Positions 50,175-52,628 of a stretch of DNA of 64,000 nt are shown here, in pieces (within the stretch, counting starts at the first letter, position 1; every line of letters starts with the position of its first letter). The DNA is from a bacterium. GTDB taxonomy: Bacteria; UBA8248; JACPRG01; G963555815. The notes beneath the pieces were generated by a model. The model ran no database searches and had not been told where the DNA came from. It worked only from the letters and a program-made list of their open reading frames with translations. The stretch is from the NCBI GenBank assembly GCA_965261595.1, contig CBDHDG010000005.1, forward strand, positions 768,001 through 832,000, read 5' to 3'. Position numbers and translations under genes: made by a program.

Positions 50175-51074
50175 TCACCCGCTTTGTAAGAGGGTTTTGA
50201 GGATCCGGCGGACGTTTAGACGATAACTTGATTCGTGCGCGGAATCGGGCCGAATCGTCTTTCGATAAGCCCCCACCAACTGATTGGAGTCCGACCGGAA
50301 TTCCAGCACCTGGATGACGTGGTCGACTTTTCCGTTGCTCCCGACATCAATGAATTCGTCATGGTAGACGCTTCGGAGCTCTGTGTTGCTCAGCCATCGC
50401 GCTTCCTGTTCGCTTGCGAGGATGGCGGTTTTCTTTCCAGGCATTTTCAGGGTGAGGGTTCGCCGGCTCCAGGGCGAGTCATGCACCCTGGCCTCGGCTT
50501 TGGAGCCGTCAAAATTCAAACGGAGTTGGTGATAGCTGGGTTCGAAGTGGCCGGGTTCTTTCAGCGCGCCCCGCTCGATCACGGCGGCGGCCAGCAGGCC
50601 GAAGGGGGTCTGGTTGCGGGATTTTTGAAGATTCCGCCAACCGAGGAAGATCGCCAGGATGAGAACGGCGACAGTCAACGTCGCCCCGCTCCGGCTGCCC
50701 AGGAATTGCCGGAAACCCGACAGCAGGGACAGTTCGACGGCCTTGCTGAGTTGCGGCGCGAATCCCCGCTCCATTTCGAGGTCCGGACGCATCGCGGAAA
50801 GATCGGCGAAATCGGGGATGTCCTTGGCGCGTTTTCGGCGGGTCTTCCCCTTGTCGTCATCCACCTTCTGATCGAAGACATTTTTTTCGAGAAAGGTCTT
50901 CTTGATGTTGAAGACCTTGCCTTCCTCGCTCTTGATGAGGCACAGCTCTCCCTTCCAGATTTGGCTCAGGGAGACCTTGGCGCCTTTTTTGAACTCATGT
51001 TCTTGGGGCTCCTGCCCCTTTTTCATCCGCGTATAAGCCGTAAAATCTTCTGCGACGGTCGCCTCGATGGCCAC
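50175..51074 (-). CDS. Hypothetical single-pass membrane protein
   Basis: 299-aa ORF, small soluble N-domain, one TM (LTVAVLILAIFLGW), C-terminal domain; family not recognised. Confidence 0.65.
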   Translation of the reverse strand: MAIEATVAEDFTAYTRMKKGQEPQEHEFKKGAKVSLSQIWKGELCLIKSEEGKVFNIKKTFLEKNVFDQKVDDDKGKTRRKRAKDIPDFADLSAMRPDLEMERGFAPQLSKAVELSLLSGFRQFLGSRSGATLTVAVLILAIFLGWRNLQKSRNQTPFGLLAAAVIERGALKEPGHFEPSYHQLRLNFDGSKAEARVHDSPWSRRTLTLKMPGKKTAILASEQEARWLSNTELRSVYHDEFIDVGSNGKVDHVIQVLEFRSDSNQLVGAYRKTIRPDSAHESSYRLNVRRILKTLLQSG

Positions 51075-51368
51075 GAATCAACGTCCTTTCTGGTTCAGAT
51101 TGAGCTTGCGCCCGGGCAATTGCCGGTGCGGCCACCCATCCCGGTTCATATTTATGTAATGGATTCGGGTGAGACAGTCAAATCCAAGAAGAAATATCTT
51201 GCGCCGGGTGACGGCCGCCGGTCTTCGATCCCTGTTGGAATCACGGTCGCGGCGGCCCCCGCGATAGGGGATCGGGGGGCGGGGACGGCGGCTCAGGTTG
51301 ACCTGCGCTTTGTGGTTATGGTGGAATGCCTGCCTTGGAACCGCCGATGTCGAAAAGGAGGTCGGAGA

Positions 51369-51665
51369 ATGAAGAGCGCGCTGGAATTGGCCATGGAAAA
51401 GACGGAAAAGCTGGTCTCGGAAGAGAGCGCCGGCCTTTCCGATGCGCAGAAAAAACGGATTGCGGAGATCGAAGCGGAGTGCCGGGCGAAGGTCGCCGAA
51501 GCCGAGATCATGCTCGATGGAAAGATGCGGGATGCGGTCTCCGGCGATCCGGGGTCCGCGGAGGCCGCGGTCCTGGCCCTGCGAGAGGAGCACCTGAGAG
51601 ACAAAGAAACGTGGGCGGCGAAGCGGGATCGCGAGGTTGCCAAAGTGAAAGAGAAAAGGGGCTGA
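51369..51665 (+). CDS. Helical hypothetical protein (MKSALELAMEK...)
   Basis: Strong SD AAGGAGG; charged coiled-coil composition. Confidence 0.8.
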   Translation: MKSALELAMEKTEKLVSEESAGLSDAQKKRIAEIEAECRAKVAEAEIMLDGKMRDAVSGDPGSAEAAVLALREEHLRDKETWAAKRDREVAKVKEKRG

Positions 51666-51668
51666 CGT

Positions 51669-51884
51669 ATGAGCGATGAGAGCGCCCGGCGGCCGCAGGC
51701 CGATCGGCCGCCCCGTGAAACATGGCAGAACCGCGTAGCGCAATTCCTGAAGCGAATTCGGCAGATGTTCGGAGGCCAGTGAGGGACCCAGGTTTGACCC
51801 AACTCGACTCCAGGTCTGGAGTCCGGTGAAGAGGAAAGACCGAGACCCGAGCCGGACGTAAAGGATTCTTCTCCCTCCGCGTAA
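51669..51884 (+). CDS. Candidate selenoprotein microprotein (37 aa if first TGA is stop; 71 aa with TGA 51780 and 51795 read as Sec)
   Basis: ATG 3 nt after upstream stop; two in-frame TGA; SECIS-like hairpin at 51806-51823; frame closes at TAA 51882-51884. Confidence 0.55.
51806..51823 (+). promoter_or_regulatory. Bacterial SECIS-like hairpin
   Basis: GACTCCA-GGTC-TGGAGTC; core CAGGTCTG matches the apical loop region of the E. coli fdhF SECIS. Confidence 0.55.
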
Positions 51885-52088
51885 GGCCTTGGAAGCGTTC
51901 GCCCGCACCCTTGCGATTCATGGGTTGGCCCTGGGCGATTCCGCCTGACCGTCCCGCGGCGGAATGAGGACGTGGGCGCCGGCCGCTCTGCGCCCCTCAT
52001 AAGTCTCCATCACGCAAAGCGCTGGATAATCCCCCGGTTCTGTCGGACCCCGGCGGCTGGGAATCTCCTGGGTGTGGAGGTGGTGTCG

Positions 52089-52628
52089 TTGAAGCTGGAG
52101 GAGACCCTGATTACGGCCGAGGAAATTCGGCGCCGGGTGGAGGAGTTGTCCGATCGGATCCGAGCCGATTACAAGGGCCGGGACCTTCACCTCGTCGCCG
52201 TGATGAAGGGTTCGCTGTTTTTCACGGCGGATCTCATCCGGGCCTTGGAACGTCGGGTGACGCTGGGCTGCTTGATTGCGTCCAGCTATCGGGAGCGGAC
52301 GGTCAGTGAAGGCAATGTGGAGCTTCTGACCCAGGGGATGGGCGAGGTCAAAGGCCGCCACGTTCTGGTTGTAGACGATATCGTGGACACCGGGTATACG
52401 CTGGAGAAGATCCGCGAGGTGTTGATGGCCCACGAACCCGCTACGTTGAAGTTCGCCGTATTTCTGGACAAGGTGGAGATGCGCAAGGTTGCGTTCGATG
52501 TGGATTATGTCGGATACACCATTCCGCCGAAATGGGTCGTGGGGTACGGGCTGGATTGCGCCGAGCAGTATCGGGAGCTGGGCTCGATCCGGGTGATTGA
52601 CCCCGCCGGGGATGAGAACGGGGCTTAG
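52089..52628 (+). CDS. hpt: Hypoxanthine phosphoribosyltransferase
   Basis: VMKGS..F.ADL, ASSY, VLVVDDIVDTGYTL, LDK, VVGYGLD..E.YR.L. Confidence 0.95.
   Translation: MKLEETLITAEEIRRRVEELSDRIRADYKGRDLHLVAVMKGSLFFTADLIRALERRVTLGCLIASSYRERTVSEGNVELLTQGMGEVKGRHVLVVDDIVDTGYTLEKIREVLMAHEPATLKFAVFLDKVEMRKVAFDVDYVGYTIPPKWVVGYGLDCAEQYRELGSIRVIDPAGDENGA

Follow-up and report, generated by a model that had tools for sequence, protein, structure and literature searches.

The selenocysteine insertion sequence (SECIS) of Escherichia coli fdhF is a hairpin within the open reading frame (ORF), which is located 3' of the UGA codon and carries a GGUC loop of 4 nucleotides (nt) that is closed by an A-U and then a C-G pair. 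A bulged U of this SECIS has a role in the binding of SelB, and the encoded protein, a molybdoenzyme of 715 amino acids (aa), has widespread forms with cysteine (Cys) in place of selenocysteine (Sec). In the predicted UXX-star selenoproteins, the SECIS lies beyond the stop codon. Here, we describe a stretch of 64,000 nt, referred to as the window, which corresponds to positions 768001-832000 of contig C5 of a bacterial genome of the GTDB phylum UBA8248 (G000; 6.17 Mb, 63% G+C) and which contains a small gene with two in-frame TGA codons, TGA1 and TGA2, followed by a single hairpin with an fdhF-like loop. The best reading of this locus, held with moderate confidence, is a micro-selenoprotein of 71 aa with two Sec residues, in which one hairpin would serve both UGA codons. 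That the gene product contains Sec in one form or another is rather likely.

The fdhF gene of strain MG1655 consists of a TGA, 18 nt and the GGTC loop with the apex GCAGGTCTGC, which agrees with what the initial annotation of the window had stated of it. Both fdhF and the candidate contain an identical 8-mer (CAGGTCTG / CAGGUCUG) and have the GGUC loop and its closing pairs in common; however, the stem is bulged in fdhF and a perfect stem of 6-7 base pairs (bp) in the candidate, whose loop is found 15 and 30 nt from its two UGA codons, and the candidate product is a peptide of only 71 aa for which no Cys form was found. A published model of bacterial SECIS (bSECIS) elements, as given in passages of PMC13188914, demands a loop of 3-9 nt, a stem of 4-16 bp, a G in the first two loop positions, a distance of 16-37 nt from the UGA and a minimum free energy of at most -7.5 kcal/mol. 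The tables of the same review, published in 2026, list predicted double-Sec families with a UxxU motif, the metal-binding protein NF041115 and the FmdB-family TIGR02605, which resemble the candidate in having two UGA codons separated by only a few others, in a small protein that presumably functions in metal binding or redox reactions; closely spaced double UGA codons thus have a precedent. These families are of the U-x2-U type, whereas the candidate is of the U-x4-U type and has no match in NCBIfam. The UXX-star selenoproteins (NF041114, NF041211) are likewise short proteins or domains and carry Sec beside the stop codon, but no UXX-star model matched the candidate, which has a further conserved frame of 28 codons. 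Finally, passages of PMC13449736 describe a SelB-binding hairpin without Sec insertion in the leader of E. coli selAB, which is located 3 nt from the Shine-Dalgarno sequence that it represses, whereas no start site is found near the candidate hairpin. Neither a U-x4-U selenoprotein nor this peptide was found in NCBIfam or in the literature searched, which included passages of PMC13188914, PMC13326102, PMC1976440 and PMC2398784.

Conservation of the double-UGA arrangement

Re-reading of the sequence placed the ATG (51669), the two TGA codons (51780 and 51795) and the final TAA (51882) exactly where the initial annotation had put them, and the ATG lies 3 nt after the stop codon of the upstream 98-aa gene (TGA, 51663-51665), as had been stated. 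A profile and pattern search detected the element in three of 51 genomes of the phylum, G000, G003 and G006, which belong to three different genera of one family. G003 and G006 were also the only genomes returned by a scan in which each of 185,579 species was represented by a single genome and from which the source record was possibly left out, and a scan of metagenome contigs added two close relatives of G000, L062 and L063. All five loci share the order TGA, 12 nt, TGA, 9 nt and the invariant sequence ACTCCA-GGTC-TGGAGTCC. TGA is found at both positions in five out of five DNA homologues from three genera, and TAA or TAG variants, which the initial annotation had named as a ground for refutation, occur at neither. 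TGAG, the 12-nt spacing, the heptamer GGTTTGA and the hairpin core ACTCCAGGTCTGGAGTCC are invariant across the five sequences. The peptides encoded between the two TGA codons are GTQV, GTEV, AAGV and AEKV, and the valine codon is always GTT, preceded by G. GGTTTGA is not enriched in G000 (625 copies versus 452 expected), and the exact 16-mer hairpin occurs there as a single copy.

The loci also have a common gene order, which consists of a divergent gene of around 290 aa, the 98-aa gene, the small ORF, 200-420 nt and hpt, the last being a neighbour in G003, G006 and L063 as well. The start of the small ORF is coupled to the stop of the 98-aa gene at a distance of 3 nt in G000, 2 nt in G003 and by an ATGA overlap in G006. 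Across genera, the 98-aa protein is 62% identical and the small peptide 30-36%. In the codons for Q25-G36 of the first 37 sense codons (ORF1), 5 of 12 codons differ between G000 and L063, all of them synonymously. Judged by its coupled start, its conserved amphipathic pattern and the synonymous changes in the helix, ORF1 itself looks real. A complex prediction for the 98-aa protein and the ORF1 product gave a score of 0.02, which says nothing either way.

The initial annotation had recognized no selenoprotein family in the peptide, and this was borne out by family searches: an hmmscan of NCBIfam release 20 with the five peptides, in which U was read as C, returned no family at E-values up to 10, no Pfam family was found for the small peptide, and a search of Rfam over positions 51200-52300 gave only a chance match to a snoRNA (E 9.3).

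Possible translation beyond the UGA codons

After TGA1, none of the in-frame codons is ATG, GTG or TTG, so that the tail could be translated only if both UGA codons were read through. Following TGA2, frame 0 runs for exactly 28 codons in G000, L063, G003 and G006, and the other frames for 9-86. The genome-wide chance of exactly 28 sense codons after a TGA is 0.013 per lineage. The last 19 of these codons, referred to as the tail, have a cross-genus nucleotide identity of 0.43 versus 0.27 in the 57 nt after the stop codon, and the identity by codon position is 0.49, 0.51 and 0.30 (column-permutation p=0.014). BLOSUM sums of the tail amount to 36 in frame 0 versus -10 and 26 in the other frames. 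Furthermore, the final serine and proline codons follow the pattern YCN, with C always at position 2 and A at position 3 only. Conservation past the TGA codons, on which the initial annotation had placed weight, is present at the level of sequence, hairpin and reading frame, whereas codon usage and close-strain substitutions (see below) speak against coding.

Metatranscriptome contigs placed on positions 51300-52150 came from four runs, counted as three studies; such contigs give no strand, level or true transcript ends and may stem from DNA carry-over. Two contigs from different studies (51631-52008 and 51591-51986, from X16 and X18) span the end of the 98-aa gene, ORF1, both TGA codons, the hairpin and the tail, and extend 100-125 nt beyond the TAA.

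The hairpin as a possible SECIS element

The perfect hairpin GACTCCA-GGTC-TGGAGTC, which starts 8 nt past TGA2 (51806-51823), is present exactly as initially described. On its own it folds at -9.4 kcal/mol with a 7-bp stem, in G000 and L062 identically. When a simple version of the published bSECIS model was applied to the TGA codons of G000, all terms held for TGA1 (30 nt, -9.4 kcal/mol), while the distance to TGA2 was 1 nt too short. The same simple test was passed by 14 of the 26 hand-picked local UGAs (described below), with UGA-loop distances of 16-22 nt, and the clear local elements are hairpins of 5-9 bp with the loops GUA, GUU, GGUCU, GGUCAU or AGGU. In loop and size the candidate hairpin is like these local elements, a comparison that the initial annotation had suggested, but its distances of 15 and 30 nt fall outside their range. 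The closest local counterparts are AhpD-like genes (C7:382286, C6:1478491) with the hairpin CGGAG-GGUCU-CUCCG at 16 nt from the UGA, compared with 15 nt for TGA2; this hairpin is similar in size to that of the candidate, and its loop begins with the same letters. Unlike the candidate, these genes have many relatives and clear coding sequence on both sides of the UGA, and their single Sec is part of a CxxU redox motif located within a Pfam domain.

Similar hairpins are also found elsewhere in the genome: the simple test is passed at 89 out of 1871 TGA codons that are the ordinary stops of likely genes, and G000 contains 846 hairpins in which a stem of 6 bp or more carries a loop of 4-6 nt starting with GGTC. 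Taken by itself, a SECIS-like hairpin therefore counts as weak evidence. The whole arrangement, however, exceeds chance, because it is conserved with identical spacing in G003, G006 and the two metagenome contigs. Local SECIS hairpins are themselves nearly invariant. The hairpin of an OsmC-like gene is unchanged in five of the six sequences found (G000, G001, G003, G004, G006). That of the AhpD-like genes was recovered from five of eight loci searched (G000, G001 and G004 only) and is otherwise unchanged there, the exceptions being one loop letter in G004 and, directly 3' of the stem, an A instead of G in both G004 and one pair of paralogues. Nearby synonymous sites, by contrast, do vary, and invariance is therefore to be expected of a SECIS hairpin in this group.

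The weaker look-alike CCAGGTTTG, which had been noticed after TGA1, is present as sequence but forms no convincing hairpin; the conserved feature of this stretch is the heptamer GGTTTGA, and the idea of a second hairpin serving TGA1 was not supported. A separate hairpin for TGA1 was considered and rejected, as G003 folds GGGGGUU-UGAUC-GACCUCC and G000 and G006 have no equivalent. A crude scan for GGTC- or GGTT-loop hairpins after TGA codons yielded mostly noise.

Selenocysteine machinery and other candidate selenoproteins

The initial annotation had called for a search of the genome for the sel genes, and all of them were found. selA (550 bits) and selB (390 bits) are located at C6:190309-193686, the tRNA-Sec at C6:845075 (72 bits; SeC in ARAGORN) and selD on the minus strand at C5:89297-90265, with an in-frame TGA. 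All matches to selA, selB, selD and tRNA-Sec that pass the family cut-offs lie outside the window. Both selB and tRNA-Sec are present in seven out of seven genomes of the family. selD is a selenoprotein gene itself (KAGG-U-GSKIG), whose downstream hairpin is not of the GGUC type.

A codon-usage scan of G000 yielded 140 TGA codons with coding-like flanks, 26 of which were picked by hand as selenoprotein-like on the basis of motifs (CxxU, UxxC, OsmC-like, deiodinase-like). Two of these 26 picks, a CMD/AhpD-like and an OsmC-like gene, were verified, with Pfam domains that span the U, and the TGA of both genes is kept in G001, G003, G004 and G006. G000 seems to hold a large selenoproteome. According to passages of the BSepDB paper, the ten bacteria richest in selenoproteins include metagenome-assembled genomes with the NCBI label Nitrospinota (UBA8248 as GTDB phylum), a label that is also borne by the record of G003. 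The candidate types include many AhpD-like CxxU proteins, OsmC-like proteins, Prx/Trx-like UxxC proteins and deiodinase-like proteins with T-U-P-P; examples of selenoprotein-like TGA codons outside the window are C7:382286-382288, C5:439281-439283 and C6:1478491-1478493. No local precedent for a double-TGA selenoprotein was found in G000, where 31 coding-flanked pairs all resemble gene junctions, and formate dehydrogenase did not provide a local SECIS reference, as in-frame stops are absent from all 17 genes that matched the FDH-alpha model.

Weighing of the two-Sec reading and its alternatives

Several findings weigh against a peptide with two Sec residues. A Cys-form homologue is, in the literature passages covered, the usual criterion for a selenoprotein, and none was found by a profile search of 1.84 billion representative proteins with the five peptides, in which the truncated ORF of L063 (37 aa) and two repeat proteins of no relation were the only matches; the interchange of TGA and Cys codons that the initial annotation had hoped for in homologues is thus absent from everything searched. 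Six-frame searches of 41 and 51 genomes found nothing beyond G000, G003 and G006, and with the element in only three of 51 genomes there are few independent observations and the comparative evidence is thin. Apart from the G003 and G006 orthologues, weak six-frame matches (E 0.01-10) were taken as chance, as was a match in G028 (E 0.003) with three TGA and one TAA inside. In addition, the codon-usage log-odds after TGA2 is -0.23 per codon, which equals the median score of non-coding frames; among likely genes, only 2.2% have a value this low over their last 28 codons, and the score of ORF1 is also low (0.04). Between G000 and L063, the tail has 10 nt changes distributed over codon positions as 2, 4 and 4, with one synonymous and five non-synonymous codons and no clear sign of purifying selection. 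The last 20 codons of ORF1 show no periodicity, and the periodicity test accordingly has low power. In L062, AAA replaces the TAA, so that the frame would run on towards hpt, and in an RNA-library contig of a variant strain (X18, depth 5.8) a T>A change at 51795 turns the heptamer into GGTTAGA, with AGA for TGA2.

The hairpin raises further doubts. In L063, G003 and G006 its stem is reduced to 6 bp with -6.5 kcal/mol, L063 having an alternative fold with a 7-bp stem and a 9-nt loop, and an invariant hairpin offers no covariation. The spacing of 15 nt to TGA2 is 1 nt below the published minimum of 16, both spacings lie outside the local range, and 30 nt exceeds the local maximum by 8. An extended lower stem, in which GGUUU pairs with AGACC or AAACC, was rejected, as it belongs to the fold of G000 only and its register is lost in G003 and G006.

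Much of this would be accommodated by a microprotein of 37 aa that ends at TGA1. The conserved GGTTTGA and hairpin would then be an RNA element within the untranslated 3' portion of the mRNA, either a SECIS-like decoy that binds SelB or a site for another RNA-binding protein, and would control how stable the bicistronic message is or how it is translated. In line with such a product, codon usage and the substitutions between close strains look non-coding downstream of TGA1, no Cys homologue was found in the searches, and the spacing suits neither UGA by local standards. The hairpin and the GTT that precedes TGA2 are, moreover, fixed at the level of nucleotides without covariation, and the changes of TGA2 to AGA in one RNA contig and of the TAA in L062 occurred with nothing else changed. 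The selAB leader of E. coli provides a precedent for a regulatory, SelB-binding, SECIS-like element (passages of PMC13449736), and the 37-aa product has already been called by a gene caller in a public metagenome (P0002; the truncated ORF of L063). However, a 37-aa product would leave unexplained why frame 0 ends at exactly 28 codons in three genera, why the 3-nt-periodic conservation of the tail ends at the stop codon and why the two TGA codons share one frame with a constant 12 nt between them. Moreover, no start codon or ribosome-binding site adjoins the hairpin, hpt starts 266 nt beyond it and the RNA contigs end earlier. We consider this explanation less likely than the two-Sec reading, but a serious rival to it.

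A 42-residue peptide with one Sec is more doubtful still and, in our view, quite improbable. UGA 51780 would encode Sec, UGA 51795 would be the stop codon and the SECIS would be located past it (U-x4-stop), which corresponds to the layout of the predicted UXX-star selenoproteins. Of the two distances, 30 nt falls within the published 16-37 nt and 15 nt outside; a tail that looks non-coding in codon usage and in close strains would be expected, and L062 would have lost its TAA without consequence. Passages of PMC13188914 tabulate families in which Sec is separated from the C-terminus by two or three residues. On the other hand, Sec would itself tend to be inserted at a UGA stop located 15 nt upstream of a loop that binds SelB, yet TGA is retained in all five DNA sequences, and neither the conserved 28-codon frame nor the periodic conservation of the tail would be explained. 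In addition, 30 nt is 8 nt above any of the 14 local SECIS spacings, and no UXX-star model of NCBIfam matches.

It is very improbable that the hairpin serves to terminate transcription, or to protect the 3' end, of the operon of the 98-aa gene and ORF1, with TGA2 being incidental, as would be suggested by a stable GC-rich hairpin soon after an ORF stop codon: it lacks a U-tract, which had led the initial annotation to regard it as a poor terminator, a terminator scan returned nothing at the hairpin, contigs from three runs of three studies (X15, X16, X18) extend 160-185 nt beyond it, the RNA thus evidently not ending at this point, and the stem, loop and flanks are invariant over three genera, none of which terminators need.

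Proposed mechanism and implications

Read-through of both UGA codons, as proposed in the initial annotation, is probable, and its reading as a 71-aa peptide with two Sec residues is partly supported. Under the two-Sec reading, ribosomes leaving the 98-aa gene would restart at the adjacent ATG and produce the basic amphipathic helix, a step for which the ORF, the coupling geometry and the selection on the helix provide the basis. We infer that SelB, loaded with Sec-tRNA(Sec) and bound to the downstream GGUC hairpin, would insert Sec at UGA 51780 and at UGA 51795 in place of termination by RF2. The ribosome would then melt the hairpin, read it as TPGLES, add a hydrophilic, Ser/Pro-rich tail of 19 residues and stop at TAA 51882, thereby releasing a product of around 71 residues, which would consist of the helix, the motif U-[G/A]-x-x-V-U and a disordered tail. 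By their chemistry, two selenols five residues apart might form a reversible diselenide or act in soft metal or selenium chelation. Gene callers would cut the gene at the first UGA.

It is nearly as likely as not that the locus represents a Sec-only micro-selenoprotein of recent origin in one family of a marine lineage that is exceptionally rich in selenoproteins, which has no Cys form anywhere and in which one GGUC hairpin recodes two UGA codons 15 nt apart. Apart from the amphipathic helix, a diselenide or metal site formed by U-x4-U would then be its sole conserved functional feature. Bacterial selenoproteins have been found almost only via their Cys-containing relatives, and gene callers truncate at UGA; a 71-residue family without a Cys form escapes both routes. 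If the two-Sec reading is true, lineage-specific Sec-only microproteins exist, and U-x4-U joins the few known double-Sec families. The locus would then also be a natural case of two UGA codons and one hairpin, at distances of 15 and 30 nt, which lie at the edges of accepted SECIS geometry, and would bear on the coupling of SelB tethering with the position of the ribosome and serve as a test of the reach of one SECIS. If the tail is untranslated, the locus contains a conserved SECIS-like hairpin with a non-decoding role, which is uncommon outside the E. coli selAB leader.

Features of the locus and further observations

The features of the locus are compiled in Table 1.

Table 1. Coordinates of the candidate gene, its proposed recoding signals and its neighbours, counted from the first letter of the window
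Feature	Position	Strand	Remarks
Upstream neighbour, 299 aa, unknown family	50175..51074	-	Divergent; conserved neighbour; no Pfam/NCBIfam family
Gene for 98-aa helical protein, unknown family	51369..51665	+	Conserved across the phylum; stop 3 nt before microprotein ATG
ORF1, 37 sense codons from ATG 51669	51669..51779	+	Variable N-terminus, then basic amphipathic helix (W19...F34, FLKRIRQMFGG)
TGA1, proposed Sec38	51780..51782	+	Next letter always G; 30 nt before hairpin loop
Inter-TGA codons, [G/A]-x-x-V	51783..51794	+	GGG ACC CAG GTT in G000
Heptamer GGTTTGA, holds TGA2	51791..51797	+	Invariant alignment columns
TGA2, proposed Sec43	51795..51797	+	15 nt before hairpin loop
SECIS-like hairpin GACUCCA-GGUC-UGGAGUC	51806..51823	+	Loop 51813-51816; starts 8 nt after TGA2
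Invariant hairpin core ACTCCAGGTCTGGAGTCC	51807-51824	+	Would read T-P-G-L-E-S if translated
Hydrophilic tail, 19 codons, Ser/Pro-rich end	51825..51881	+	Same length in three genera
TAA stop of read-through frame	51882..51884	+	28 sense codons after TGA2
hpt (hypoxanthine phosphoribosyltransferase)	52089..52628	+	TIGR01203, 169.8 bits versus cut-off 150; conserved downstream neighbour

Homologues of the 98-aa protein are found in 29 of the 41 genomes searched, G000 included. Neither this protein nor the 299-aa neighbour belongs to a Pfam or NCBIfam family, and the Protein Atlas contains only unnamed 'hypothetical protein' clusters for the 98-aa protein. The 98-aa gene is kept and the small ORF absent in G004 (L038), G002 and G005 (L041, L042); in G004, the locus is rearranged, with no hpt within the next 1.5 kb. 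G001, which belongs to the same genus as G000, is without even the 98-aa gene in an assembly of 190 contigs.

The small ORF shares its reading frame with an open frame that begins at GTG 51972 and with hpt (52089). In L062, at least 37 more codons are open past the lost TAA, and the frame would reach hpt if continued. The RNA-library contigs of X15, X17 and X18 end at 51982-51986, one contig ends at 52008 and another begins at 52083, which may mark a boundary of transcripts that separates the small ORF from hpt, close to an inverted repeat (GGGCGC...GCGCCC); hpt is probably a separate transcript.

A relationship of GGTTTGACCC to the repeat GGGTCGGTTGACCC was considered and rejected, as only the sequence of G000 resembles it and GGTTTGACCC occurs in 19 copies versus 14 expected. 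GGGTCGGTTGACCC itself is present in 49 copies in G000 versus 0.1 expected, none of which is in the window. It forms a small GGGUC-GGUU-GACCC hairpin, which often lies within a GC-rich inverted repeat of greater length or is arranged in tandem, and it looks like a REP element. Several contigs of G000 carry multi-copy ORFs with an in-frame TGA and coding-like flanks, whose identical contexts recur 3-6 times and which look like mobile elements. CTCCAGGTCTGGAT, which is one letter off the hairpin core, is found at C3:2664, C4:8569, C5:9900, C5:1105359, C6:1814114 and C7:1368640; these six copies are located near contig ends and probably belong to a multi-copy element such as an insertion sequence.

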